This document shows positions 1,052-25,234 of a DNA stretch of 64,000 nt, one piece after another. Below the pieces are notes generated by a model that saw nothing but the letters and a program-made list of their open reading frames with translations, did not search any database and was not told the DNA's origin. Origin of the DNA: Kouleothrix sp. GTDB taxonomy: Bacteria; Chloroflexota; Chloroflexia; Chloroflexales; Roseiflexaceae. Every line of letters begins with the position of its first letter. The stretch's first letter is position 1. The DNA lies in the NCBI RefSeq assembly GCF_046328425.1, contig NZ_JAXLWP010000032.1, positions 23,479 through 87,478 on the forward strand. The letters are read 5' to 3'. The position numbers and the translations under genes are program-made.

Positions 1052-3628
1052 CTACCGCCCTACGGTGATGCTGCTGATGTTGTTATACGGCCCGCCGTGC
1101 AGCTCGTGCGATTCGAGCACTGCGCCATAGTCGGTGTTGACATTCGCCGAGTCGACTTGGGCGTAGATAACATCGCCTGGCGCGATCGGCGTGCTAAGCT
1201 GGCTCAGCGCCGGGTGGTAGAACTGGTCGCCAACCACAAGGGTGAGCCCGGCGTTAGGCGCCAGCGGCAGGCCGCCCGAGGTCACGCCCCACACCAGCCC
1301 TTGTTTCCCTAGCTTCGGCCAGGTCTCGTTCACATGCGTCGGCGGCACAGCCGGGTTGATATACGCGTCGACCCAGAACGCATTCGTTACCGCGGCGCCG
1401 CCAATATTTTTGATCGTCACCTGCACCTGCCCGCCCACTACTGCGATCCGCTCGACGATCAGATCGGGCTCGCTCAGCTGCGCAACCACCGGCAGATACA
1501 CACGGAACGATCGCTCTGGCGCGTCTACGCGCGTGGCCGTGGGCGTACTTGTCGCCGTGCGCGTAGCCGTGCGCGTGGCCGTTGGCGTGCTTGTCGCCGT
1601 GCGCGTGGCCGTTGGCGTGCTTGTCGCCGTGCGCGTAGGCGTGCGGGTGGGCGTTGGCGTGCGGGTGGGCGTTGCCGTGCTGGTTGCGGTATTCGTCGCC
1701 GTAGGCGTATTTGTCGCCGTGCGCGTGGGCGTTGCCGTGTTCGTTGCGGTATTTGTCGCCGTGCGGGTGGGTGTTGCCGTGTTCGTTGCGGTATTCGTCG
1801 CCGTGGGCGTAGGCGTCGCCGTGCGTGTAGGCGTAGCCGTGGCTGTTGGTGTGCTCGTAGCAGTATTCGTAGCCGTGGCTGTTGGTGTGCTCGTAGCGGT
1901 ACTCGTAGCCGTGGCCGTTGGGGCTGCCTGCACCTGAACAAACACCTTCGCCGCGGCGCTGGCCGCGCGCCCATCGCCAGCACCGTAGAAGAACGTATCG
2001 GTTCCGCTGAAGCCAGCGGGCGGGCTGTAGCGTACATACCCGCCGCTGATCGCAACGCTGCCACCGCGCGCCGAAACCGGCTGCACAAACTGAAGCGCGA
2101 GCGGGTCGGCGTCGGCGTCGGCGTCGTTTGCCAGCACCGCGAATGTAGCCGGTGTATCAACCAGGGTGCTGAAGCTATCGTCGCGGGCGGTTGGCGGATG
2201 GTTTTCGGCCGGCTGCACAAGCGTACCGGGCGAGGTGATCGCGATCGTCCCAACAATCGCCGCCGGCGCCCCGCCGTTGGCGTTGTTGAGATCGATATTC
2301 TGCTGCGGCGTCAGTGCGCCGTCGCCCTCGAGCGCGAATGGCGCGGCGTTCGCAGCCGCCTGCTCGAGCCGGATGTTGCGCACGTCGACGGTATTGCCCA
2401 GCAAGCTTAGCGTCGCCGTGACCGCCGGGCCGCCGGAAAGCAGGCTGATCGCGGCGTCGGAAGCGGCCGGCGCGGCAGACTGCACGCTGTTGATCACGCT
2501 ATTATCGCGGATGATCAGATCGTATGTGGCCGCGCCCAGCGCCTGCGCCGCTATCCCGCTGCCGCTGGCGCCATCGACATGGTTGCCCGCGATCAGCGCG
2601 TGCTGCTGCCCGCCCGTGCCGTTGGAGCCTACGAGCGCGATCGCGTCGCCGCCAACCGCGCTCACCTGGTTGCGCAGCACCTGCGCGCCGATCCGCGCAC
2701 CCGCCTGCGCCTCGAGCCGCACGCCGCCATCCCGCGCCACCGTGGTAATGCTGGTATCAGCTATTGTTATGTTAAGCTCTGGCGCGCCGTCGGCGGTGCC
2801 GGCCACAATCGCCGGGCCAGCGTCGCCGGCAAGGCCGGTGATCGTGTTCCCAGTTACCCAACCATTGAACGCCGCGGCGCCCGAAGCCCGGAGCGCCACC
2901 GCGCTGCCGCGCAGGTTGGTGAAGGTATTTGCGTCGAGTGTGGCGCTGACAACCGCGCTGGCGGCGCTAATCTCCACGCCCATGCCGCTACCGCTCGGGC
3001 TAGCGCCGCTGCTAAAGCTATTGCCGGCGATGGTAAGCGCAGCCGCGCCGCCCTGCAGGGCGATACGTACGCCCGCGTGAGCGGTATCGCTGAAGCTATT
3101 GCCGGCCAGCAGCACATTCGTAGCCCCGGCCGCCATGCTTAGATCAATCGCGTCGTGCGCGGCGGGGTCGCTGCCGATCGGGCCAAAGCTGCTGTTGGCA
3201 ACCACAAGGCCGGGGAGATCGGCAAGCGCCACGCCATCGGCATCGGCGCTGGCTATACGCAGGCCGTCGAGCGTCAGTACGCCATTGAACGCGCCACTAT
3301 TCTGAATTTTCACGCCCGCACCGCCCAGCGCGGCGCTGCCAGGCCCGTCGAGCGCGAACAATGTGAGGTTACCGGTTGCGCCACCGGACGCGCTGCCCAT
3401 GCGTGCGATATCGACATTTTCGTCGTAGCTGCCGGCGCGGATGAGCACTGCATCGCCGGGGCTGGCGTGATCGATCGCCGCCTGAATGCTGGCGAAATCG
3501 CCCGCGCCGGGGCCGACTATCAGCACCGCCGCATACACATTGGCCATGGGGCGAGCGAGCCACGCGGCTGCCAGCGCCAATGCCAGCACCAGCGCCGCCC
3601 AACGGCCAGCAGTGGTTCTTCGAAGCAT
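1052..3628 (-). CDS. secreted right-handed beta-helix repeat protein with Thr/Pro/Ala tandem-repeat linker and C-terminal CARDB-like domain
   Basis: ATG at 3628 is preceded by AAGGAG and followed by a signal peptide ([27 protein letters not shown]). Long run of NxxGxxG/TxTxT beta-helix repeats. About 130 aa of PTATxT repeats, then [22 protein letters not shown] (CARDB-like). The ORF track's N-terminal extension back to 3709 is not supported by an RBS. Confidence 0.75.
1530..1920. repeat. in-frame DNA tandem repeats encoding the (P/A/S/N)T(A/R)T Thr-rich linker
   Basis: Repeated gccgtgcgcgt(a/g)g(c/g)cgt(t/g)ggcgtg units are visible directly in the sequence. The translation is ...[23 protein letters not shown]... 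Confidence 0.7.
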
Positions 3629-3711
3629 GTGCGGCTCCTTTACGCTCGGCGCCAGCGTCCGCTGAGCGGCCAAAACGCAGCGCGGCGCCGTCGCGCGTCT
3701 GCTTATCATAC

Positions 3712-4165
3712 CAAATTCGCTTGATTACTTACACTTTGGTGGGGGTTTGGGGGCGGCTTCGCCGCACCCAAAGTTCTTTTTGTGCTGCACTACCTGGCGA
3801 AGCCACGCAGTGCAATACAATCTATAGGTGTATGACTTACGCAATTGGCGCCTTTAGCCGTCGGCAGAGCGGTACTATGTTCCGTATCGTGTGCGGTGTT
3901 TCCGCACGGAGCACGGAAACACCGCACACAGAAGATGAATAAGTACCATGCTGCCGCAGGCAAATGCACCCGATTGAGCGAGCCGAACAAGGCAACTGCG
4001 TAAGTCCTAAGAAGCTGTTTGAAAAGGGTGGTTTGGAGGGACAAAGTCCCTCCAAGTTTCCACTTTTTCTGGCGGGTGGCGGCCACGAATGTGGCCGCCA
4101 CCCGCCAGAAAAAATGCGAGGGGGCAAAGCCCCTCGCTCACCCCCTTTTCAAACAGGCTCTAAGG
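3712..4165. repeat. composite REP/BIME-like mosaic (modules B, H, G, I, C)
   Basis: ccaaattcgcttgattacttacactttggtgggggtttggggg (module B) recurs at 29293, 38490(rc), 62670(rc) and 63926. Hairpin gtgtgcggtgtttccgcac / gcggaaacaccgcacac (module G) recurs at 9975 and 58535. gaaaagggtggtttggaggga ... ttctggcgggtggcggccac ... gtggccgccacccgccagaa ... (module C) recurs at 10190, 22225 and 29355. Confidence 0.8.
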
Positions 4166-4551
4166 TGATCAAGCGAAGAGTGTATCATAGCACGAGTGGC
4201 GCGACGCCCAGCCAAACAGCACGATCGCACCGCTCGGATCAAAGATAACTGAAACGCGTGTGGAAATACTAAGCTTTGCAGTAATGCCTGAATGGGCCTA
4301 TATATACTAGCGTAGGCCAGAGCGGGGCACATTTCAAGAAGATCATACGATACCAAGGGTAAAGAATCTACAAGCCGCAGCTCGCGGCCCGGTATGCCAC
4401 CGTAAAAACGGCAGCCTCCGGTCGCTGGCATAGCGAGCAGGGCAGCACCGCACAGCGGCGCCGCTCGTGCGATAGTGCTGCATCGTGCCAGCGCTATGAT
4501 AGCGGGGCGCATGCTATAATCCGCCTGATGGTTCGACACAAGGCGGCATGA

Positions 4552-5361
4552 ATGACCACAATTCTGATTGTGGGCGCGGCCGACACGGGGCGCGCGCCGA
4601 TCGCGGCGGCGCTGCTGCAGCGCCTGCTCGATACACAATACCCCGGCGCCCGCGCCGAGAGCGCCGGGGTGCTGGGCCACGACGGCGACCCGGCCGAGGT
4701 TGAGGCGCGCGACACAATGCTGCACATGGGCATCGACCTCTCGGGGCACCGCGCGCGCTCGGTCGACGACGCGCTCGCCGCTGCTGCGGCGCTGCTGCTG
4801 GCAATCGACAGCGGCACCGCGCTGGTGCTGCGCGGGCGCTTCCCAGGCGCGGCCGCGCGCGTGGCCACGCTGGGCGAGCTGGCCGGGCGCAAGCGCGACG
4901 TTCCCGACCCCTTTCGGATGCAGATCGGCGCCTGGATGACCTACGCGCGCGAGATCGACGACATGCTGCGGGCCGCACTGCCGGCGATCATCGGCCGAGC
5001 CGGGCCAGCTGCGCCCGCCCCGGCCGGTGGCGTACCTGAAGCCCGCCGCGCCGCCGCCGAGCGCCTGGCGCAGCTGCTCCAGCTCGCTGCCACCATGCCC
5101 GACGTGATCGATTGGAGTGTAGCGCGCGGCCGCCTCGATGGCGACCTAGCCGCCTGTGGCAGCGCGCCAGCTGGCGCATCCGACATGGTGGCCGCCTACG
5201 TGGCGCTGCTGCGCGCCGGGCTGGCGATGCTGCCGCCCAAGCCGGCGGCCACGCAGCTTGGGCTGCTGCAGCGCGCCACCACCCGCCTGAGCGACCCGGT
5301 CGACCAGGCGGCGCTGAACGAGCTTTCGGCGCAGGTCGCAAGCCTGCCAGCACTGGCCTGA
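4552..5361 (+). CDS. LMW protein-tyrosine-phosphatase/ArsC-fold protein lacking the catalytic Cys (P-loop VGAADTGRAP), with Ala-rich C-terminal extension
   Basis: ILIVGAADTGRAPIAAALL aligns to the LMW-PTP P-loop V-C-x-G-N-x-C-R-S, with both Cys replaced by Gly and the Arg retained. The DVPDPF motif (DPYY-like general-acid loop) is present. TGcTATAAT extended -10 at about 4511-4522. Confidence 0.65.
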   Translation: MTTILIVGAADTGRAPIAAALLQRLLDTQYPGARAESAGVLGHDGDPAEVEARDTMLHMGIDLSGHRARSVDDALAAAAALLLAIDSGTALVLRGRFPGAAARVATLGELAGRKRDVPDPFRMQIGAWMTYAREIDDMLRAALPAIIGRAGPAAPAPAGGVPEARRAAAERLAQLLQLAATMPDVIDWSVARGRLDGDLAACGSAPAGASDMVAAYVALLRAGLAMLPPKPAATQLGLLQRATTRLSDPVDQAALNELSAQVASLPALA

Positions 5362-5366
5362 CGAGT

Positions 5367-6455
5367 ATGAAACGCCCACATCCGCTGTTTCTAGCGCATA
5401 CCCAGCCCGGCTTCGAGGCAATCGCGATCGACGAGATCGAGCGCAGCGTCGATGGCGCGCGCGTGCGCGGCACCCGCAGCGTAGCGGACAAAAACGGCAT
5501 GGTGCTATTCGAGTACCCCGGCGACGCCCGCGACCTGCTGGCGCTGCGCACACTCGAAGACCTATTTGTGGTGGTGGCTACGCTGGAAAACCTGCCGCCC
5601 ACGCGCGAGGCGCTGCGGCTGATCGAGGGCTCCGCCGCGCGCGCCACGGCGATCACCTCGGCGCTAGCGCAGGCCCGGCAGATCGCCCCCGCGCGCGGCG
5701 GCAAAGGCAAGCTGCGCTTCAGGGTGATTGCCCGGCAGGTCGGGCGCGCGGCCTACCGGCGCGTCGACGCACAGCAGGCGCTGGCGCGCGGCCTGGCGGC
5801 GCGCGACGACCACCGCTGGCAGGCGGTAGACGATGGCGGCATCGAGTTCTGGCTGACGCTGCTGCCCGGCGAGGCGATCGTGGCGCTGCGGCTCAGCGAC
5901 GAACGCATGCGCCACCGCGAGTACAAGATCGAGCACCTGCCGGCCTCGCTACGGCCCTCGGCGGCAGCGGCGCTGGCGTGGCTCACGCGCCCGCACGACG
6001 ACGACCTGTTTCTCGAGCCAATGTGCGGCGCGGGCACGCTGCTGATCGAGCGGGCGCACATGGGCCGCTACCGGCTGCTGCTGGGCGGCGACATTCGCGA
6101 AGAGGCGGTGGAGCTGGCGCGCGCGAACATCGGGCCGCGCTACAAGCCGATCGAGCTGCGCCAGTGGGACGCGCGGGCGCTGCCTGTCGACGCGGGTGCG
6201 GCCAGTGCCGTGGCGGTAAACCTACCGTTTGGCCGGCAGATCGGCAGCACCGAAGACAACCGCCAGCTGTACCCGGCATTTTTGCGCGAGATGGCGCGCG
6301 TGCTGCGGCCGGGCGCGCGGCTGGTGGCGCTCACCGGCGACCGGCGCACCCTGGAAGAATCGCTACGGCGCGCAAGCAAGCTCGCGCGCCGTGAGTTCTT
6401 CCCAGTGATGCTGCTCGGCCAGCCGGCCGGCGTATACGCCCTGGAGCGCGTGTAG
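5367..6455 (+). CDS. THUMP-domain class I SAM-dependent RNA (m2G/m6A-type) methyltransferase (RlmL/Trm14-like, COG0116)
   Basis: MKRPHPLFLAHTQPGFEAIAIDEIE is a THUMP N-terminus. LEPMCGAGTLLIERA is the SAM-binding motif I. NLPFGRQIG is the NPPY-like catalytic motif. The ORF-track extension to 5112 is Arg-rich and overlaps the upstream gene. Confidence 0.8.
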   Translation: MKRPHPLFLAHTQPGFEAIAIDEIERSVDGARVRGTRSVADKNGMVLFEYPGDARDLLALRTLEDLFVVVATLENLPPTREALRLIEGSAARATAITSALAQARQIAPARGGKGKLRFRVIARQVGRAAYRRVDAQQALARGLAARDDHRWQAVDDGGIEFWLTLLPGEAIVALRLSDERMRHREYKIEHLPASLRPSAAAALAWLTRPHDDDLFLEPMCGAGTLLIERAHMGRYRLLLGGDIREEAVELARANIGPRYKPIELRQWDARALPVDAGAASAVAVNLPFGRQIGSTEDNRQLYPAFLREMARVLRPGARLVALTGDRRTLEESLRRASKLARREFFPVMLLGQPAGVYALERV

Positions 6456-6469
6456 CGCCAGGGGCGGCG

Positions 6470-7033
6470 CTACTTCACGCGCTCGATATACTCGCCGGTG
6501 CGCGTATCGACCCGCACTGTGTCGCCTTGGTTGACGAACGCCGGCACCTGGATCACCGCGCCGGTCTCGAGCGTCACCGGCTTGGTGATGTTGGTGGCGG
6601 TGTCGCCGCGCACCGCAGTGGACGCCTCAGTCACCTGCAGCGTCACGAAGAATGGCACCTCGACGCCCAAGATCTTATTGTCGTCGTAGAACAGCACGTC
6701 GGCCATCTCGGCTTCTTTCAGGAACCTGGCCGGCTCGCCGATATCGTCCTCGGGGATCTCGAGCTGCTCGAACGTCTCGGTGTCCATGAAGTGATACATC
6801 TGGCCTTCGCGGTAGAGAAACTGCATGGAGCGCTTGTCGACGCGCACAATCTCGATATCCGAGCCGGCGCGAACGCGATCCTCGATCACCTTGCCGGTCT
6901 GCACGTTCTTGAGCTTCATGATCACCATGGCGCGCCAGTTGCCTGGGGCATGGTGGTGAAACTCGACCACGCGATGCAGCGTGCCGTTATAGCGAATAAT
7001 AATATTTGTGCGCAGATCCGACGTCGTGGGCAT
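6470..7033 (-). CDS. efp: elongation factor P
   Basis: MPTTSDLRTNIIIRYNGTLHRVVEFHHHAPGNWRAMVIMKLKNVQTGKVIEDRVRAGSDIE ... over 188 aa is a full-length EF-P match, including the KPG-region equivalent. The ORF-track start at 7165 is an extension. Confidence 0.9.
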   Translation of the reverse strand: MPTTSDLRTNIIIRYNGTLHRVVEFHHHAPGNWRAMVIMKLKNVQTGKVIEDRVRAGSDIEIVRVDKRSMQFLYREGQMYHFMDTETFEQLEIPEDDIGEPARFLKEAEMADVLFYDDNKILGVEVPFFVTLQVTEASTAVRGDTATNITKPVTLETGAVIQVPAFVNQGDTVRVDTRTGEYIERVK

Positions 7034-7158
7034 GGCTATGCTCCTGTCCATAGAAAGCGCCGCCCTGTGGTGGCGGCGCAGTGAAAGCCGTGAAACGCTA
7101 CCCGATATTATAGCAGAACTGCGCCGGTAGGCGCAAATTGCGCGCCGGCACGCGCGGG

Positions 7159-7187
7159 TTGACAATCTTGATATTCATAGCTATAAT
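7159..7187 (+). promoter_or_regulatory. consensus sigma70-type promoter TTGACA-17-TATAAT driving the tRNA cluster
   Basis: ttgaca atcttgatattcatagc tataat ends about 8 nt before tRNA-Leu. Confidence 0.65.
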
Positions 7188-7197
7188 GCGGCACGTG

Positions 7198-7286
<89 letters not shown>

Positions 7287-7290
7287 ACAC

Positions 7291-7366
7291 GGGCGATTAG
7301 CTCAGCTGGTAGAGCGCCTCGCTTACACCGAGGTTGTCGGCGGTTCGAGTCCGTCATCGCCCACCA
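7291..7366 (+). tRNA. tRNA-Val (anticodon TAC), encoded CCA
   Basis: Acceptor gggcgat / atcgccc. D-loop agctcagctggtagagc. Anticodon stem cctcg / cgagg with loop ctTACac. T-loop ggttcgagtcc. Confidence 0.85.
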
Positions 7367-7443
7367 GAGTTACGGGTTTGCGAGCTTGCCTTTTGAGCCG
7401 GCCCGGCTTGAAGCTCAGCGCTCGGTCCCCATAGCTCACGCTC

Positions 7444-7519
7444 GCCAGGGTAGCTCAGTTGGTAGAGCGCGTGTCTGAAAAACACGAGGTCACCGGATCG
7501 TCCCCGGTCCCTGGCACCA
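7444..7519 (+). tRNA. tRNA-Phe (anticodon GAA), encoded CCA
   Basis: gccagggtagctcagttggtagagc ... anticodon loop ctGAAaa ... ggatcgtcccc ... ccctggcacca. Confidence 0.85.
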
Positions 7520-7523
7520 GCAT

Positions 7524-7557
7524 CAGAGAGCGGTAAAAGCCGCTCTCTTTTGTTTTG
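7524..7557 (+). terminator. rho-independent terminator after the tRNA cluster
   Basis: cagagagcgg taaaa gccgctctc followed by ttttgtttt. Confidence 0.6.
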
Positions 7558-7640
7558 CCTGCGCGACTTGACAGGCGCGGCGGGCGCGTGTATTGTGCGC
7601 CCATGCTACCGAAGCCGCAGTGCCGCGCCTGGAGGCCAGT

Positions 7641-8579
7641 ATGCCCGCGCCCGCCCGCCGCGCCCCGTTCAACTGGGGCAGCGCCCTCGACTACCTGCTG
7701 ATCATTGTCTCGGCGATGGTCTCGGCCGTCAATGTGGCGCTGTTCCTGGCGCCGCACCGGATCGCGCCCGGCGGCGTCAGCGGCATGGCCATTCTGATCA
7801 ACGCCGTCACCGGCTGGTCGATCAGCCTGGTGATGCTCGGCTTCAACGTGCCGCTGCTTGCGCTCGGCTTCCGCATGCTCGGCGGCTGGCGCTTTCTGCG
7901 CCGCTCGCTGATCTACACGATCATCTCCAGCGGCGGCGTCGACGTGGCAGCGCGCTTCTTTCCGGCTACCGGCATCAGCCACGATCTGCTGCTGAACGCA
8001 ATCTACGCCGGCGTGGTCGGCGGCATTAGCGCGGGCCTGCTCTACCGCGGCGGCGGCGCCGGCGCCAGCACCGGCATTATCTCGCGCGTGCTGCAGCGCC
8101 TCACCGGCATGCCGCTGAGCCAGGCCTACCTGTGCGTCGACGGCGGCATCATTCTCGTGGCGGCGCTCCTGTTCAGCTGGGAGGCCGCGCTGTACGCGCT
8201 GATCACCCTGTTTATCTGGGGCGTGGTAGCAGACTATGTGCTCGAGGGGCCGGGGGTTGTGCGCATCGCCACGATCGTCACCGACCGCGGCGACCGCGTG
8301 GCCGACGCGATCATGCACCACCTGGGCTACGGCGTGACGGCCTGGCGCGGCGAAGGGAAGTACACGCACCAGGCCCACGACGTGCTGTTCACCACGATCA
8401 ACCGCTCGCAGGTGAGCGAGCTGCGCGCGCTGGTGGCCGCCGCCGACCCCGACGCGCTGCTGGTGATCGGCCAGGGCCACCAGGCGCTCGGCCATCGCTT
8501 CCGGCCGCTGCGCCCGCGCTTCGCCTCGCTCCAGCTCGATTTAGGAACCGACGAGGCGGCCGAGGGCGACGCGCGCTAG
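7641..8579 (+). CDS. YitT-family (DUF161/DUF2179) integral membrane protein
   Basis: Multi-TM N-terminal half (DYLLIIVSAMVSAVNVALFLAPHRIAPGGVSGMAIL ...) and C-terminal DUF2179-like soluble domain (VVRIATIVTDRGDRVADAIMHHLGYGVTAWRGEGKY). Upstream TTGACA-17-TATTGT at about 7568. Start could be 7593 or 7641. Confidence 0.65.
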   Translation: MPAPARRAPFNWGSALDYLLIIVSAMVSAVNVALFLAPHRIAPGGVSGMAILINAVTGWSISLVMLGFNVPLLALGFRMLGGWRFLRRSLIYTIISSGGVDVAARFFPATGISHDLLLNAIYAGVVGGISAGLLYRGGGAGASTGIISRVLQRLTGMPLSQAYLCVDGGIILVAALLFSWEAALYALITLFIWGVVADYVLEGPGVVRIATIVTDRGDRVADAIMHHLGYGVTAWRGEGKYTHQAHDVLFTTINRSQVSELRALVAAADPDALLVIGQGHQALGHRFRPLRPRFASLQLDLGTDEAAEGDAR

Positions 8580-19180: not shown

Positions 19181-21373
19181 GTGTTCAACCGGAAGTGTGG
19201 CCCGGCCGCGCTGGCGCTAGCGGCGCTGCTGAGCCTGGGCGCGTGGCGCCAGCTGCCGCTTGCGCGCGCCGCCGCCCTGCCCGTGCCGGCCGGCGTAAGC
19301 GTAGCGCCCGACGACCGCAGCGCGATCGTTCAGTGGGACACCAACCCGCAAGACCCAACCGCGCCGCTGCCGGCCGGCGTGGTGGGCTACAAGATCAGCT
19401 GGGGGCCGGCGGCCACGCCCACCGCCTTCAGCAAGCTCACCGAAGAGCGGATCATCCAGCTCCAGCCGCTCGTCAACGGCCAGCCCTACGCCGTGCAGAT
19501 CCAGTCGGTCGACAGCCAGGGCAACCTGTCGGCGCCCAGCCCAAGCCTGAGCTTCACCGGCGACTCCACGCGCGTCGACGGGCTGCGCGCGCGTATGAAC
19601 GGCTTCTTCGACGACTTCAACCTGCCGCAGGGCCTGCCCGACGAGACCAAGTGGAACAGCGCGTACTCGCGCTGCAACGCCGCCGCAGCCAACGGCTTCT
19701 TTATCAACGACCAGTTTCACGCGCACAACACCGGCTTCTCGGCCAACTGCGACCGCGGCCAGAGCATCAGCCGGCCGCGCGCCGTGCTCGACCTCTCCGA
19801 CGGCGGCACGCGCACGATCGTGTTCGACTTCGACGGCGCGTTTCGCCGCAACCAGTGGTACCTCGACCTGGTGCCACGGCTGATGGATATCAGCGGCCAG
19901 GTGAATATCGAGGGCCTCAGCGCCCCGGCCGACCCGGCCGACGGCCTGCGCTTCCACCAGAGCGAGCAGGTCGCCAGCATCAGCCTGTTCGGCGACGACG
20001 GCGCGGCGCAGAGCCTGGCCTATACCGACAACGTCGTGGCGCCCAAGCTCGACGCGCTCGGGGTGAAGCAGGTGCCGAATGTGCGCCGCCACTGGGAGAT
20101 CCACGTCAGCCGCAGCTACGCCGAGGTGCTGATCGACGGCCAAAAGGTGCTCGCCACCAAGCCCGGCGCATTTCAGCTGAAGCAGACGCGCTACTACCTG
20201 CTGTGGAATATGTTCAGCTACAACAGCAACAAAGCCAACGTGCCAATGGTGCTAGGCCACTGGGACAACTTTGGCTTCGACGCGCCGGCCGGCAGCGCCA
20301 GCAGCAGCGTGACGCATAACTACCGCCTGGTGAACAGCGGAACCGACTTCATGAAGGCGTACGGCGAGTATGCCCCGGCCGCGGCCACGCTGAACATCCC
20401 CGACGTGGTGGCGGGCGCGGCGGCGCGGCGGCTGATGTTCACGCTGCAGATGGACGAATTCGACGCCTACAGCTGGTCGCCCGAAGATCGCGTGACGGTG
20501 AACGGCAGCCAGTTCGCGATCCCCAAGCCGGTGTCGAACGCGCAGCCGGCGCTGGCGCCCGAAGACCTGGTGAGCACAATCGCGCCCTACAGCGTAGCGA
20601 TCGACCTGCCCGACGGCGTGCTCAAGCAGGGCGCGAACCAGATCAGCTTCAGCACCGCCGGCAGCTCGGTGCACAATATCCACGCCGAGCTCGACTTCGA
20701 CAGCGCCAGCGCGCCGGGCTACACCCCGCCAGCGCAGGCCGCCAGCGGCGCGCCCCAGCCGGCGATCCAGCCGGTAGGGCCGAACGCGGTCATCGCGCAG
20801 ATCGGCGCGACGCTGATCGACCCAGCGATCAGCGACCTCAGCAGGACGGCGGTGTTCAACCAGCCGGTGAGCGGCGTGGTGCCGATCAAGGCCGAGGTGC
20901 ATAACGACATTGCCCTGCAGAGCACCGGCAGCAACCAGGGCGTGCGCCAGGTCGATCTGCTGGTGGATGGCGTCGCCGTGTTTTCGCAGCGCGCCGACGC
21001 GGCCGCGCCGGCGCCGGCGGTGCTGGCAACCTTTAACCTCGACACCCGCAAGCTGGCGAATGGCCTGCACGAGGTGTATGTGCGCGCCTACGACGCGCGC
21101 TGCGTGCCGAGCATCGCCGACTACCTGGGCGCGGGCGATGGCTCGGGCAGCTACTACCCGCTGCACATCAGCGTGCGCAACGCGGCCAGCGCCCCTGCGG
21201 CGGCCGGCATTGCGGCGGCTTATCGCGTGTCGCTCCCGCTGATAACGCTGGGGCCGCGCCTGCAAAGCAGCTGCGCGAGCACCAGCAGCGCCCCGCCGCG
21301 CGGCGCGCCCAGCGGCGGCGCCTGGCCGGCCGACCTGCGGCGCGACGAGCAGCTTTTCGTCTGCGAGTGGTAG
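19181..21373 (+). CDS. secreted FN3-domain protein with large uncharacterised beta-rich central region and Ig-like C-terminal domain
   Basis: Signal peptide MFNRKCGPAALALAALLSLGAWRQLPLARAAA. FN3-like VSVAPDDRSAIVQWDT ... GYKISWGP ... QPYAVQIQSVDSQGNLSAPS. No catalytic motif recognised. Confidence 0.6.
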   Translation: MFNRKCGPAALALAALLSLGAWRQLPLARAAALPVPAGVSVAPDDRSAIVQWDTNPQDPTAPLPAGVVGYKISWGPAATPTAFSKLTEERIIQLQPLVNGQPYAVQIQSVDSQGNLSAPSPSLSFTGDSTRVDGLRARMNGFFDDFNLPQGLPDETKWNSAYSRCNAAAANGFFINDQFHAHNTGFSANCDRGQSISRPRAVLDLSDGGTRTIVFDFDGAFRRNQWYLDLVPRLMDISGQVNIEGLSAPADPADGLRFHQSEQVASISLFGDDGAAQSLAYTDNVVAPKLDALGVKQVPNVRRHWEIHVSRSYAEVLIDGQKVLATKPGAFQLKQTRYYLLWNMFSYNSNKANVPMVLGHWDNFGFDAPAGSASSSVTHNYRLVNSGTDFMKAYGEYAPAAATLNIPDVVAGAAARRLMFTLQMDEFDAYSWSPEDRVTVNGSQFAIPKPVSNAQPALAPEDLVSTIAPYSVAIDLPDGVLKQGANQISFSTAGSSVHNIHAELDFDSASAPGYTPPAQAASGAPQPAIQPVGPNAVIAQIGATLIDPAISDLSRTAVFNQPVSGVVPIKAEVHNDIALQSTGSNQGVRQVDLLVDGVAVFSQRADAAAPAPAVLATFNLDTRKLANGLHEVYVRAYDARCVPSIADYLGAGDGSGSYYPLHISVRNAASAPAAAGIAAAYRVSLPLITLGPRLQSSCASTSSAPPRGAPSGGAWPADLRRDEQLFVCEW

Positions 21374-21379
21374 CCGGCG

Positions 21380-22084
21380 CTACTGCATAGGCGGTGGGCC
21401 GTAGCTGTAGGCTTGCGGCGCGGCCCCCGCCAACCCCTGCTGCACAGCAGTCTGGCCAAGCGCGTGGCCGATCACGCACTGGGCGTAGAAGCTGGTGAAC
21501 AGCGCGCCGAAGCCGCAGGCGATCGCGCCAAGGCCGCCGACCATGCCGGCCAGGATCGCCACCACCAACACCATGGCCCACGCGCCAATGCTCCGGCGCA
21601 CGATCGCCACGACCTCGCCGACGCGCAGCGCCTGCCCAAGGTTGTTCGTGGCGATAAAGCGCGCCAGCGCAGCGAAGCTCAGCAGGCTCAGCGCCAGGCC
21701 AAGCACGATCATCAGCGGCACCAGGCAGATACCCAGCACACCAAACAGCGCGCCCACCTGCTGCTGCCCGCGCTGGCTCGATGCCGCGCCGCCCGAGAAC
21801 GCCGCGACACAGCCAAACAGCAGGCCCAGCACGACCACCGGAAGCGCGTACACCAGCCGGATCACGAAATCGTACAGGCCGCGCATCAGATGGTCGCCAA
21901 ACTCATTCCAGCGCGGCAGCGGGCGCGGGTTGCCCTGCGCCACATTCTGCGCGACCTTCAGCGCATAGCCCAGCACCGCCAGCTGGCCGATCAGCGGGAT
22001 CAGCGAGATCAGTCCGCCGATCAGCACCTTGCCGACCCACTCCTCGTCCTCGAATACGAAGCTGAATGCTTTGCCAATGTCCAT
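21380..22084 (-). CDS. DUF4013-family integral membrane protein
   Basis: MDIGKAFSFVFEDEEWVGKVLIGGLISLIPLIGQLAVLGYALKVAQNVAQGNPRPLPRWNEFGDHLMRGLYDFVI is the characteristic DUF4013 N-terminus. 5-6 TM helices. Confidence 0.6.
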   Translation of the reverse strand: MDIGKAFSFVFEDEEWVGKVLIGGLISLIPLIGQLAVLGYALKVAQNVAQGNPRPLPRWNEFGDHLMRGLYDFVIRLVYALPVVVLGLLFGCVAAFSGGAASSQRGQQQVGALFGVLGICLVPLMIVLGLALSLLSFAALARFIATNNLGQALRVGEVVAIVRRSIGAWAMVLVVAILAGMVGGLGAIACGFGALFTSFYAQCVIGHALGQTAVQQGLAGAAPQAYSYGPPPMQ

Positions 22085-22139
22085 ATGCTGGCTCCTTCAG
22101 TTCTTGTTGAACAGTCGCGTCGACGATCGCTCTATACGA

Positions 22140-22320
22140 TTAGGGCTTAGGCAGTTGGCGCGCTCTGCCTTCGGCAGAGCGCTACTCAATCTCTGTAGCG
22201 CAAGTGCGTAGCTCCACTCCTAGGAAGTTGTTTGAGAAGGGAAGTGCGAGGGGCATAGCCCCTCGCGCACCCCCTTTCAAACAGGCTCTAAAGATATACG
22301 ATACGCCGGGCCCCGGGTTA
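22140..22320. repeat. REP/BIME-like modules (H and partial C) between DUF4013 gene and hydrolase gene
   Basis: ttagggcttaggcagttggcgcgctctgccttcggcagagcgctac (module H, recurring at 41120, 47490 and 62860). gaagggaagtgcgaggggcatagcccctcgcgcaccccctttcaaacaggctctaa (module C tail). Confidence 0.7.
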
Positions 22321-22356
22321 CATGGCGGCCGGCCAGGGCCAGGCTGCGCGAGGCGG

Positions 22357-24252
22357 CTAGCCGCCAAACTCGCGCTCCAGCTCGATCACACGCACGCGCC
22401 GCGTCCAGGTGTAGTCGACCGAGCAGTGCGTCTCGACGCAGCGCTCTTTGTTCAGCGCAATCACGAGCGGGTCGCCAAGGCTGGAGTTCACCACGTCGCG
22501 GGCGCGGCCCTCGTGGGTGAACGGGCCGACATACAGATTCACGTGGTAGGCGCGGTCGACCGACAGATCGCGCTTGCCGTAGATCAGGATGTCGCCGGGC
22601 AGCCAGGTGCTTTCGTTCGTCACCTCGCGCAGCATGCCCTGGTTAGCCGGGTCGGGGCGGTAGTAGTTGGCCGCGCGCGGCCCGGTGCGCCCCGAGCCAG
22701 TCGGATCGGCGACATTGCCCCAGAGCTTGACGCCAACCTCGCTCAGGCAGAAGGTGACCAGGTCGGCGCAGACGATGTCGCGGTCGGGGGCGAACTTGCT
22801 CAGCTGCGGGAACCTGGCCAGGTCGTCGGCGTCGCTGCCGAGCAAGCCAATCGCCAGATTCGCCAGCCGGCTCGCGCGCTCGGGCATGCCGCCGGGCGGC
22901 GGCGGTGGCGGCGGTGGCGCCACGGGCTTAGGCTGCCAGGCGGCCACGGCGGCCGGCAGCGGCAGCGCGCTCAGGCGCTTGATCGCGCCGTCGGCGGCGG
23001 CGTAGAGCGTATCGAGCGCGAACACCTGCACGGTGTAGCTGGCGCCCTCGAACGCCACCGGGCGGGGCGGGCCAAGCGGCGCGCCAAGCTTGTTGGCCGC
23101 TGCGAACTGCTGAAATGGCGCATTCGCGTCGTATGGCGCGCCAATCGCGGCGTAGGTTTCGGCCCAGATCGCAGCGTAGGCCGGGTCGCTGGCGGGCGTC
23201 TCGCTCAGGCGGCGGCAGCGAGTGATCTCGCTGCGCGGCGTGTAGAGCGTATCGCCGGCAAACACCTGCACAGCGTACTTGCCATCGGCGGTGGCATAGT
23301 TGCCGCCGATCGGCGGGCCGAGCCGGGCCTGCAGCGCCACCTGGTGAAACGTCCAGTCGGGGTGAAAGGCCTGGTTGCCCTTGGCCGGCACGCGCGTGGC
23401 GCTGGCCGCCAGGCTCGCGCGGTAGCCGGCCTCAATCAGCGCGCGCGCCAGCCCGCCGGCCGGCACCGAGGCGCCGAGCATGGCATTCAGGCTCTGCACG
23501 GCATCCCAGTTGCGGCCCTCGTTGCAGATCGTGTCGCGCGCGAACGGCTGATAGTCATACGTGCGGCCATCGGCCTGGATGGGCGTCGGGTCGCTGGGGG
23601 CCAGCGGCGCGCCCAGGCCAAATTTGGCGGCGTACAGGTGAAACGACCAGTCGAGATGAAAAGTGCCGCCGCGCTGCTGGTAGGTATGCTCGGCCAGAAA
23701 CTGCCAGAGCCGCTGGGCCGCCTGCGGGTCGGGCGCGTCGCTCAGCACCGGCGGGCGGCGTGGCGCGGCCGGGCGCGGCCGCTCGGGCGGGGGCTGCGCG
23801 GGCAGGTAGTGCTCGAGGCTGCCGAGCCGGCCGGCGCTCTGCGGCGGCTGCCAGCGCACGATCGCGTCGTCTTCGAGGCCATAGTACACCAGCAGCCGGT
23901 CGAGCAGCCAGTGCAGCGCGGCCAGCTGCGCGGCGCCCGAGCCGCCGTCGAGGCGATGCTCAAGCATCACGCCGACGCTGATCAGGTCGATATTGCGGGC
24001 GCGGCGGTTCCAGGCCGCCAGGCCGCTATGGCGCGCGGCGCGCTGGCGGTAAGGCACCAGCTGGCAGATCGCGCCGTCGGCGTCGATGTAGAAGTGCGGG
24101 GCGGCGGTGCTGCCGGGGGCGGTGAAGCTGCCGAGCGCCGCGAGGGCCGGGCCAAGCCGGCTGTGCAGCACGATCGCCTGCACGCGGTTGCTGCGCCGAG
24201 GCTGGCTAGCGGTTGGCGGTGCCGGCAGGCTACGAACCTCGTACTGTGCCAT
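22357..24252 (-). CDS. modular peptidoglycan hydrolase: N-terminal Amidase_2 (N-acetylmuramoyl-L-alanine amidase) + internal duplicated repeats + Pro8 linker + C-terminal CHAP/NlpC-P60-like cysteine peptidase
   Basis: VQAIVLHSRLGP ... APHFYIDADGAICQLVPYRQRAARHSG is Amidase_2/PGRP-like. Repeats DWSFHLYAAKFGLGAPL and HPDWTFHQVALQARLGPPIG / FQQFAAANKLGAPLGPP. PPPPPPPPGG linker. DIVCADLVTFCLSEVG ... YHVNLYVGP is a CHAP-like Cys...His pair. No signal peptide. Confidence 0.75.
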   Translation of the reverse strand: MAQYEVRSLPAPPTASQPRRSNRVQAIVLHSRLGPALAALGSFTAPGSTAAPHFYIDADGAICQLVPYRQRAARHSGLAAWNRRARNIDLISVGVMLEHRLDGGSGAAQLAALHWLLDRLLVYYGLEDDAIVRWQPPQSAGRLGSLEHYLPAQPPPERPRPAAPRRPPVLSDAPDPQAAQRLWQFLAEHTYQQRGGTFHLDWSFHLYAAKFGLGAPLAPSDPTPIQADGRTYDYQPFARDTICNEGRNWDAVQSLNAMLGASVPAGGLARALIEAGYRASLAASATRVPAKGNQAFHPDWTFHQVALQARLGPPIGGNYATADGKYAVQVFAGDTLYTPRSEITRCRRLSETPASDPAYAAIWAETYAAIGAPYDANAPFQQFAAANKLGAPLGPPRPVAFEGASYTVQVFALDTLYAAADGAIKRLSALPLPAAVAAWQPKPVAPPPPPPPPGGMPERASRLANLAIGLLGSDADDLARFPQLSKFAPDRDIVCADLVTFCLSEVGVKLWGNVADPTGSGRTGPRAANYYRPDPANQGMLREVTNESTWLPGDILIYGKRDLSVDRAYHVNLYVGPFTHEGRARDVVNSSLGDPLVIALNKERCVETHCSVDYTWTRRVRVIELEREFGG

Positions 24253-24301
24253 GGGGAGCCTCCTTCCGGGCGTGAAGGGGAACGGGGGCAGCGCCTATGG
24301 T

Positions 24302-24973
24302 TCAGCCGAAGCGCACGTCGCTTTCGGCGGCGACGTACAGCTGCACCACGGCGAGGTGCGCGTAGAGCAGCGCGCTGAACATCAGCCATAGCGCCAGCAG
24401 CGTCAGCGGCCAGGGCAGCAGCCACGCGGCGCCGGCCAGCAGCAGCGCCGGCAGGTAGGCTGGCAGCGAGCGCAGGCGCGCCCTGGCGTAGATCGCGCGC
24501 GCGCGCGGGGCCAGCGCTGCGCGCACGGTGCGCATACCCAGCGCGTTTTCGGCGCGGCCAGTGTCGGCGAAGAGCAGCCGGCCCACAGGGGCAACGCTGG
24601 CGCCAAAGGCCGCAAGCTCGTAGAGCGCCAGCAGCGCCAGCAGCGCCAGCGCCGGCCAGCTCGCGGCGCCGCCGCTGGCGAGCATAGCTGCGGCTAAACA
24701 CAGCAGCGCCAGCCCCAGGCCAAAGATCGGCATGCCGAAAAACAGCACGTCGATCAGCACCGCCAGCAGGCCGGCGATATAGCGGTTGCCCCACTCGCGC
24801 CAGGGCGGCAGCGGCGTGGCGAAGCCCTTGCGCGTCAGATCCATACTCTCGATCACCAGGCCGGCGCCCCACGGGTAGCCGACGATCGTGAGCATCAGGG
24901 CGCCGCCGATCAAGATCTTGCGCCACCAGTGTGGGTCGCGGTGGATGGTGGCGAGCGCGGTGCGTAGGTTCAT
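24302..24973 (-). CDS. DUF4013-like integral membrane protein (paralog of 21380-22084)
   Basis: HRDPHWWRKILIGGALMLTIVGYPWGAGLVIESMDLTRKGFATPLPPWREWGNRYIAGL has the same W..KILIGG ... LP.W architecture. Multiple TM helices. Confidence 0.5.
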   Translation of the reverse strand: MNLRTALATIHRDPHWWRKILIGGALMLTIVGYPWGAGLVIESMDLTRKGFATPLPPWREWGNRYIAGLLAVLIDVLFFGMPIFGLGLALLCLAAAMLASGGAASWPALALLALLALYELAAFGASVAPVGRLLFADTGRAENALGMRTVRAALAPRARAIYARARLRSLPAYLPALLLAGAAWLLPWPLTLLALWLMFSALLYAHLAVVQLYVAAESDVRFG

Positions 24974-25079
24974 TGGCTAGTAGGGCTAGGCCTTACGCGT
25001 CTGCGTGGTTCCGCATCACAGTGCGGCGAGTTTGCAGCCCGCGGCAGCATGGCACCGGTCCATCTTCTGAGTGGGGTTT

Positions 25080-25230
25080 TCGGCGCGGAGCGCGGAAAAC
25101 CCCATACAGTTATTGGATAGTACCGCTCTGCCGAAGGCTGAGCGCGCCAGCCGCGTAAGCCCTAGAGACATCGCGCACAGCTACACAGAACGTACCGCTC
25201 TGCCGGCGGCAGAGCGCGCGAGCGTGCAAA
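25080..25230. repeat. REP-like modules G and H (two copies)
   Basis: ggcgcggagcgcggaaaacccc. gtaccgctctgccgaaggctgagcgcgcc. gtaccgctctgccggcggcagagcgcgcg. Confidence 0.65.
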
Positions 25231-25234
25231 GCCG

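Follow-up and report, generated by a model that had tools for sequence, protein, structure and literature searches.

Chromosomal wall hydrolases that combine repeat-type wall-binding modules with the absence of a signal peptide are familiar from LytA of Streptococcus pneumoniae and from the mother-cell lysins CwlC and CwlH of Bacillus subtilis. Actinophage endolysins, such as mycobacteriophage Lysin A, are modular in a similar way and join a peptidase, an amidase or glycosidase and a wall-binding domain, sometimes with LGFP repeats, a putative wall-anchoring module of lysins (PMC3314691). Holin/endolysin modules are known from phage lysis cassettes, type 10 secretion systems and TcdE/TpeE, and the usual holin is small (under ~150 amino acids), has 1–4 transmembrane (TM) segments and ends in a C-terminal tail that is hydrophilic and charged (PMC9527704). 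Here we compare with these systems a locus in a 64,000-nucleotide stretch of Kouleothrix sp. DNA (the window; contig NZ_JAXLWP010000032.1, positions 23,479 to 87,478), where the gene for a 631-residue protein lies between two genes for DUF4013 membrane proteins, A and B. The initial annotation of this stretch had proposed a possibly domesticated lysis or wall-remodelling cassette, with the DUF4013 proteins as potential holin or pinholin analogues. With middling confidence, we read the 631-residue protein instead as a modular hydrolase of a Chloroflexales-specific family, which stands between the two DUF4013 genes by inherited gene order.

The three open reading frames (ORFs) follow one another on the minus strand, in the order DUF4013-A, hydrolase and DUF4013-B, where they had first been placed, in DNA with a GC content of 66–71% across the window. 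An NCBI entry with the name 'N-acetylmuramoyl-L-alanine amidase [Kouleothrix sp.]' has the sequence of the hydrolase (100% identity), which places the organism among the filamentous Chloroflexota, in the Roseiflexaceae group. The features of the locus are as follows.

24302..24973, minus strand: DUF4013-A, a 223-residue polytopic membrane protein (Pfam PF13197, hydropathy, synteny).
24253..24301, minus strand: 49-bp spacer between A and the hydrolase gene, with GGAAGGAGG as Shine-Dalgarno sequence, 6 nt upstream of the start codon of the hydrolase (sequence).
22357..24252, minus strand: modular peptidoglycan hydrolase, 631 residues, signal-less.
23803..24252, minus strand: N-terminal domain of Amidase_2 fold, residues 1–150 (Pfam, alignment, profile alignment to 4bj4/2bh7/1j3g).
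23851–23853, minus strand: codon of Trp134, at the position of the second zinc-ligand His.
22951..23718, minus strand: three tandem repeats, residues 179–434, an LGFP-like, putative wall-binding core common to the family.
22894..22917, minus strand: Pro8 linker, residues 446–453.
22360..22887, minus strand: C-terminal cysteine peptidase domain of the NlpC/P60 superfamily, residues 456–631.
22768–22770, minus strand: codon of Cys495, invariant.
22543–22545, minus strand: codon of His570, invariant.
22085..22356, minus strand: 272-bp spacer between the hydrolase gene and B, with a GC-rich hairpin (core 22163–22179) and a GAAGGAG Shine-Dalgarno sequence before B.
21380..22084, minus strand: DUF4013-B, a 234-residue polytopic membrane protein and paralogue of A (Pfam, alignment, hydropathy).

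The C-terminal domain is, by structural modelling, nearer to NlpC/P60 than to CHAP, and is the sole credible catalytic module of the hydrolase. A cysteine peptidase of CHAP/NlpC-P60 type had been proposed, which is right at the level of the superfamily; by structure the fold is that of NlpC/P60, and CHAP (PF05257) is neither a hidden Markov model (HMM) match nor the closest fold, its domains scoring 6.6–8.2 in the structural comparison. For residues 470–631, no Pfam family, including NLPC_P60 (PF00877), is found at E ≤ 1, and NCBIfam gives no match either. When 1.84 billion representative proteins were searched exhaustively with HMMER, only 43 relatives, counted as representative clusters, were returned. 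Asp492, Cys495, Asp497, His570 and Arg621 are invariant in the alignment of these relatives, with Cys495 and His570 unchanged across 19 diverse sequences, and the candidates for the third residue of the triad, Asp586 and Asn589 (DVVN), are conserved as polar residues. The same rare domain is also fused to other signal-less N termini (P0231–P0271), among which we recognize by eye CarboxypepD_reg-like segments with Trp-rich LysM-like repeats (W.R.L.GF.GNRW.CW...NP.L..DG), as well as SH3-like, glycoside-hydrolase-like and, in P0249, muramidase-like segments.

The N-terminal domain belongs to Amidase_2, as initially assigned: PF01510 matches residues 21–132 with E = 3e-9 and 37.7 bits, against a cut-off of 26. 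A profile built from its subgroup finds AmpDh2 (4bj4, E = 3e-16), AmiD (2bh7) and AmpD (1j3g) in the PDB, with E values from 3e-16 to 1e-12, and such a domain profile is needed, as a phmmer search of PDB sequences with the full protein gives AmpD matches that are marginal only. The best NCBIfam match is likewise AmpD (NF008758), at 25.3 bits far below the equivalog cut-off of 143, and the only PHROG matches of the hydrolase are weak amidase/endolysin ones to this domain, with E ~1e-5.

The active site of this domain is largely missing. The second zinc-ligand His of AmpDh2 and AmiD, found there in 'GHSD' and 'AHAD', aligns with Trp134 of the hydrolase. Nothing in the hydrolase corresponds to the R-K-x-D-P-G segment, which supplies the third ligand and the catalytic Lys, and a K-x-D/C-P motif is missing as well. 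From the zinc triad (His, His and Asp or Cys) and the catalytic Lys, His30 alone is retained, and in the M15 subgroup of the family even this first His is replaced. Glu98 (LEH), the conserved catalytic Glu, is nearly invariant in the subgroup, and the canonical relative P0108 and the P0057 subgroup retain H...K.CPG/DP. Because two of the three zinc ligands and the catalytic Lys are lost, the alignment suggests that the domain is probably non-catalytic and a module for muropeptide recognition, and the dual-activity architecture first proposed becomes doubtful. Relatives of the P0057–P0107 type (for example, L005:4832-6745) carry an apparently active, canonical Amidase_2 domain (FHRD...KSCPG) at the N terminus, then three repeats and a Trp-type domain at the C terminus, so that the degenerate domain behaves as a movable accessory module.

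Between the two terminal domains lie three repeat units of ~80–90 residues each (residues ~179–264, 267–356 and 357–434), supported by pairwise z-scores of 8–14 against shuffles, and not the two pairs of ~40-residue repeats described earlier. From an alignment of 26 sequences, AlphaFold predicts that they form one compact domain (predicted local distance difference test, pLDDT, 96.4; predicted template modelling score, pTM, 0.92), in which each unit consists of two helices and a β-meander bearing a 'LG.P...Y..Q.FA.DTLY' motif. Neither Pfam, searched over residues 160–469 and including the LGFP repeat (PF08310), nor NCBIfam matches the central region, and a PDB sequence search with the repeats has no match. 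When the predicted fold is searched, the PS1 LGFP wall-binding domain ranks first among PDB structures, and lysins of Gordonia/Rhodococcus phages take the six best places in BFVD (E from 1e-3 to 6e-3). That the repeats are LGFP-like and wall-binding, as the model suggests, is plausible but weakly supported. The Pro8 run, correctly described from the start, follows at residues 446–453.

On the evidence of the sequence, a signal peptide on the hydrolase is not possible, in agreement with what had first been noted. The N terminus cannot be extended, as the frame is closed by a stop at 24295–24297, 14 codons before the ATG, and the start codon is preceded by its Shine-Dalgarno sequence at the spacing given above. 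The maximum 12-residue hydropathy in the first 60 residues is 1.31, reached in a stretch that is part of the amidase fold, and Cys first appears at residue 63. A search for a cryptic signal peptide or a lipobox, suggested along with the initial annotation, found none; both were ruled out by the position of that first Cys and by the lack of a hydrophobic N-terminal stretch. A twin-arginine translocation (Tat) leader was also considered and rejected, as the 'PRR' near the N terminus contains the conserved Amidase_2 Arg just before the His30 β-strand and is not a twin-arginine motif. The absence extends through the family: of 109 homologues that were retrieved, almost all lack a signal peptide, and the exceptions are three M23-type relatives (P0085, P0095 and P0104) in which an N-terminal hydrophobic segment replaces the amidase domain.

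Scanning 185,579 species, each represented by a single genome, returned 163 relatives of the hydrolase, all from Chloroflexales (Chloroflexus, Oscillochloris, Chloroploca, Viridilinea, Roseiflexaceae, Ca. Ribeiella and SZAS-1) and often with at least two per genome. Neither the repeats nor the C-terminal domain, used as queries, find relatives in INPHARED phage genomes or in IMG/VR. Members have the triple-repeat core in common and exchange their ends. Degenerate Amidase_2 and repeats are followed by the NlpC/P60-like domain of the window type (P0001–P0008, P0027), by an M15 domain (PF13539) or by an M23 domain (PF01551); in P0098, the repeats are joined to a canonical PF00877 domain; and in the P0057 type described above, the canonical amidase and repeats precede the Trp-type amidase-like domain. 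Classified by sequence, this is a Chloroflexales-only family of signal-less, modular putative wall hydrolases whose catalytic ends (M15, M23 and NlpC/P60) are interchangeable.

Membrane proteins of other kinds lie next to some of these paralogues. At L004 of Ca. Oscillochloris fontis (2950–8138), two M15-type paralogues stand in tandem and a DUF7847 membrane protein follows 7 bp later; hhalign shows no relation to DUF4013 for this protein or for a 157-residue ORF found beside other paralogues. In Chloroflexus spp. (L061, L062, L069 and L090), a protein of 206–208 residues with 5 TM segments ends 4 bp upstream of the paralogue, and the same position is taken by a protein of 368 residues and 9 TM segments, TerC-like by eye, at L071 and by one of 269 residues and 7 TM segments at L086. 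This adjacency of membrane protein and hydrolase in Chloroflexus is lineage-specific and unrelated to DUF4013. At L022, L024, L039, L074, L075 and L085, a same-strand ORF of 634–663 residues lies just upstream of the family member.

We then considered 80 genome loci that encode hydrolase relatives, in which DUF4013 was sought within 8 kb; it is absent at 78 of them. Clustering of the neighbouring ORFs at these loci yields lineage-specific synteny blocks only, the top cluster being present in 21 of the 80, and the clusters are noisy, as calling in six frames gives only crude ORFs in DNA of high GC content. Adjacent same-strand ORFs with at least two TM segments are not enriched (13/76 upstream, 5/75 downstream).

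DUF4013 pairs without the hydrolase are the commoner state. The order thrS-(variable)-ytxH-cinA-A-B recurs in several genomes, with A and B ~100–220 bp apart and no hydrolase between them. Such pairs are found in Kouleothrix (GCA_046328445, GCA_016722075 and GCA_032229365), in an 11-Mb Chloroflexi genome and in JGI contigs, and L007, L008–L010, L011 and JGI 3300043331 are loci of this kind, as are 12 from metagenomes. These 12 come from a metagenome sample selected by the presence of B, which also contains a single A-hydrolase-B locus and three loci where neither A nor the hydrolase lies upstream of B. The hydrolase also occurs without B, at L001/L012, L006 and L117. One locus, L093 (contig APMI01123510.1), captures an intermediate state: an intact A (..164) and an intact B (631..) lie 460 bp apart, and nucleotides 375–610 between them hold a frameshifted remnant of hydrolase residues 551–631 (tblastn E = 7e-15). 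The hydrolase has therefore been lost in that lineage while the DUF4013 genes were kept. By ThrRS and DUF4013 identities, genomes that carry the hydrolase are interspersed with those that lack it, and in more distant genomes the pair A-B stands alone. Most simply, the hydrolase gene would have entered the spacer of an older A-B pair once, in an ancestor of the Kouleothrix/Ribeiella/SZAS-1 clade, and would then have been lost several times.

Both flanking proteins are DUF4013 members, as originally assigned: against a Pfam cut-off of 26.9 for PF13197, B scores 100.1 bits (E = 1.6e-28) and A scores 36.8 bits (E = 4.4e-9). The two are paralogues with 27% identity and common D..W..K.LIGG and PLPxW motifs. 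A has more than 200 orthologues at 55–82% identity in Roseiflexaceae, and B more than 380 homologues. Measured against the description of holins above, they are in most respects unlike holins. At 223 and 234 residues they have 4–5 hydrophobic segments (4 strong ones in B), and the C-terminal tail is ~10 residues long in A and free of charged residues in B. DUF4013 has no match in PHROG, tblastn against 50,697 phage genomes of INPHARED finds none and IMG/VR holds none; a search of the literature on DUF4013 found nothing relevant to function.

The spacers of the locus carry a GC-rich palindromic motif, CTCTGCCGNNGGCAGAG, with the extended form GTACCGCTCTGCCG..GGCAGAGCGCGC. Its strand-specific matches at up to 2 mismatches number 14 in the 64 kb, at about ten loci, where 0.5 would be expected by chance, and its three good copies (22163, 25126 and 25198) all lie in spacers that bracket A and the hydrolase gene. 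The copy at 22163 forms the hairpin listed above (free energy −24.7 kcal/mol, z = −3.1), and the other two are placed as follows.

25126–25142, minus strand: palindromic motif copy in the ytxH-A spacer.
25198–25214, minus strand: palindromic motif copy in the ytxH-A spacer.

The motif may be a repetitive extragenic palindromic (REP)-like element or a terminator, and as terminators its copies could delimit an A-hydrolase transcript, with B probably transcribed separately in the window. It is absent from the corresponding spacers in related genomes, and a scan for promoter and terminator consensus sequences found sites no commoner than in shuffled sequence.

Put together, these observations suggest an enzyme in which the NlpC/P60-type domain, with Cys495 and His570, would be the working catalytic module and would cleave stem peptides, most likely as a γ-D-Glu-diamino-acid (DL) endopeptidase. 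The Amidase_2-fold domain would recognize muropeptides, as in non-catalytic peptidoglycan recognition proteins (PGRPs), and the three LGFP-like repeats would anchor the enzyme to the wall. The wall would be reached by a non-Sec route, which we favour because the whole family lacks signals and a conserved membrane partner. Action after membrane damage or death of a filament cell, as for LytA or CwlC, is the route that we would favour and could serve autolysis or filament breakage; a general pathway of another kind would be the alternative.

Several observations weigh against this reading. The hydrolase has seven orthologues, at 58–100% protein identity to the window sequence (window, L001/L012 of Ca. 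Ribeiella danica, L006, L013/L092 of SZAS-1, L116, L117 and P0006). Each of their genes comes straight after DUF4013-A in the same orientation, 49–171 bp away, and at L116 only 17 bp separate the hydrolase gene from B, so that co-transcription and some functional tie within the clade are possible. The DUF4013 neighbourhoods that we sampled are those of Chloroflexales only. Glu147 and His148, a few residues downstream, are conceivable substitute ligands for an amidase site whose inactivity is judged from alignment alone, and the family-wide absence of signal peptides would fit a cytoplasmic role too. The synteny proposed at the outset as a check thus divides: adjacency to DUF4013 is kept in every orthologue and is absent at nearly all loci of the wider family. 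Inherited gene order would explain the constant adjacency without any function, and we hold with moderate confidence that the sandwich is not a holin-endolysin cassette.

The cassette first proposed, in which A, B or both would serve as a holin or pinholin analogue or as a membrane control device within a three-gene domesticated lysis or remodelling unit, seems to us quite unlikely. It draws on the short gaps and common strand of A and the hydrolase gene in all seven orthologues, three of which (window, L013/L092 and L116) also have B following, on hairpins that bracket the A-hydrolase unit and suggest one transcript, on the lack of any export signal on the hydrolase and on the free field left by DUF4013 proteins, which have no assigned function and for which no literature was found. 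These points are met by the greater age of the A-B pair, which persists without the hydrolase even where a decayed remnant of it is left, just as the hydrolase persists without B, and by the 78 paralogue loci that lack DUF4013. Relatives of DUF4013 are missing from PHROG, INPHARED and IMG/VR, the size of the proteins (223–234 residues), their 4–5 hydrophobic segments, conserved loop motifs and uncharged C terminus are unlike those of holins, and the membrane proteins beside other paralogues (DUF7847 and the 157-residue ORF) are unrelated to them. Similarly improbable, in our view, is a narrower version confined to the Kouleothrix/Ribeiella/SZAS-1 clade, in which DUF4013-A, with or without B, would have been recruited as a dedicated, non-phage partner that exports or gates the hydrolase. 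If it were true, it would give DUF4013 its first function and reveal a new, holin-independent release of a hydrolase, perhaps for filament breaking or for the lysis of sacrificial cells.

Two further explanations dispense with a holin altogether. The protein could remain in the cytoplasm and take part in muropeptide recycling or sensing, its AmpD-like module binding anhydro-muropeptides while the NlpC/P60 domain trims the stem like YkfC, or it could be a regulator like CwlM, an amidase homologue of the cytoplasm; we consider this rather unlikely. The family-wide lack of signal peptides and the housekeeping gene context speak for it, as does the fact that the best solved relatives of the N-terminal domain are AmpDh2, AmiD and AmpD and its best NCBIfam match is AmpD, but that match reaches 25 bits where 143 are required, and the amidase zinc site is degenerate. 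Wall-binding-like repeats and swapped M15, M23 and NlpC ends are, moreover, hallmarks of enzymes that act on the sacculus, and the M23-type relatives P0085, P0095 and P0104 have their N-terminal hydrophobic segment instead of the amidase domain. A polymorphic antibacterial effector, with a variable C-terminal wall toxin, signal-independent delivery into neighbouring cells and DUF4013-B, the downstream membrane protein, as its immunity factor, is very improbable. A constant N terminus and repeats with an exchangeable catalytic C terminus, several paralogues per genome, the missing signal peptide and the differing small genes downstream of different variants would suit such a system. Immunity proteins against periplasm-acting wall toxins are, however, normally small soluble proteins or lipoproteins, unlike a protein with 5 TM segments; DUF4013-B is widespread without the hydrolase, which itself occurs without B; and the neighbourhoods that we inspected showed neither secretion-system genes nor modules of PAAR/Rhs/WXG type.

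The initial annotation described a chromosomal, endolysin-like modular hydrolase outside any prophage, and this is supported. The wider context of the locus in the window is a housekeeping one: the three genes are accompanied by a gene for a Wzy_C-like membrane protein, recN, a gene for a putatively secreted fibronectin type III (fn3) protein, ytxH and thrS, and beyond thrS by a gene for a membrane protein of no assigned family, a LOG-family gene and a glyoxalase gene. No phage genes were found near the hydrolase, which also bears out that annotation. The nearest gene beyond B is convergent with it.

19181–21373, plus strand: fn3 protein, 730 residues, convergent with DUF4013-B.

This protein has a hydrophobic N-terminal leader that resembles a Sec signal by eye, and its only Pfam match is a weak one to fn3; a 723-residue protein without a Pfam match has the same position and orientation beside DUF4013-B in three further Kouleothrix genomes (L008–L010). 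On the other side of the locus, every related locus examined has cinA separating ytxH from DUF4013-A. In the window this gene is gone, and the interval (24974–25234) is reduced to a 260-bp spacer that carries two palindromic motifs. Its absence points to a local rearrangement at the locus.

If our reading is correct, its value lies mostly in annotation, as the database name 'N-acetylmuramoyl-L-alanine amidase' would probably be wrong about the active chemistry. The NlpC/P60 subfamily that Pfam does not see, the triple repeat of helices and LGFP-like elements and the Trp-type pseudo-amidase domain are all under-described. The wider question is how a signal-less family of wall hydrolases reaches the wall in filamentous Chloroflexi, whose envelope biology is poorly known, and an answer, be it programmed lysis, filament breakage or a new route, would bear on multicellular behaviour and on the Kouleothrix filaments that cause sludge bulking. 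The link to DUF4013 is the only concrete lead to a partner, and the comparative evidence makes a partner role a long shot. A search for literature on Kouleothrix and peptidoglycan found nothing useful.

Compared with known systems, the locus resembles holin/endolysin modules in that a signal-less hydrolase gene stands beside same-strand genes for polytopic membrane proteins. It differs from them in that DUF4013 belongs to no known holin family or PHROG, is larger, is widespread without the hydrolase and is absent from phages, and in that no cargo, spanin or phage genes lie near the locus in the window. With the modular actinophage endolysins, the hydrolase shares the lack of a signal, the mix-and-match modules and the combination of Amidase_2, peptidase and LGFP-like repeats. 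Unlike them, it has no phage context, no relatives in INPHARED or IMG/VR and no neighbouring holin of a known family, and its repeats lie in the middle of the protein, behind an amidase domain that is apparently inactive.

Its closest enzymatic counterparts would be the NlpC/P60 (MEROPS C40) DL-endopeptidases, such as YkfC of B. cereus (3h41), MepS of E. coli, LytE and CwlO of B. subtilis and RipA and RipB of M. tuberculosis, from which it is set apart by the missing PF00877 match and the very small size of its subfamily and, in the case of the exported LytE, CwlO, MepS and RipA, by the lack of a signal peptide. Like recognition PGRPs, it keeps the Amidase_2 fold with zinc-ligand residues replaced, a pattern that suggests binding without cleavage. 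Recognition PGRPs typically lose the Cys ligand alone, whereas the hydrolase has Trp in place of the second His and is missing the whole Lys-x-Asp/Cys-Pro segment. To LytA, CwlC and CwlH it has no sequence relationship, and the likeness is one of mechanism and not of membership: each is a signal-less chromosomal hydrolase with repeats, a design that fits the lack of a conserved export partner in this family.

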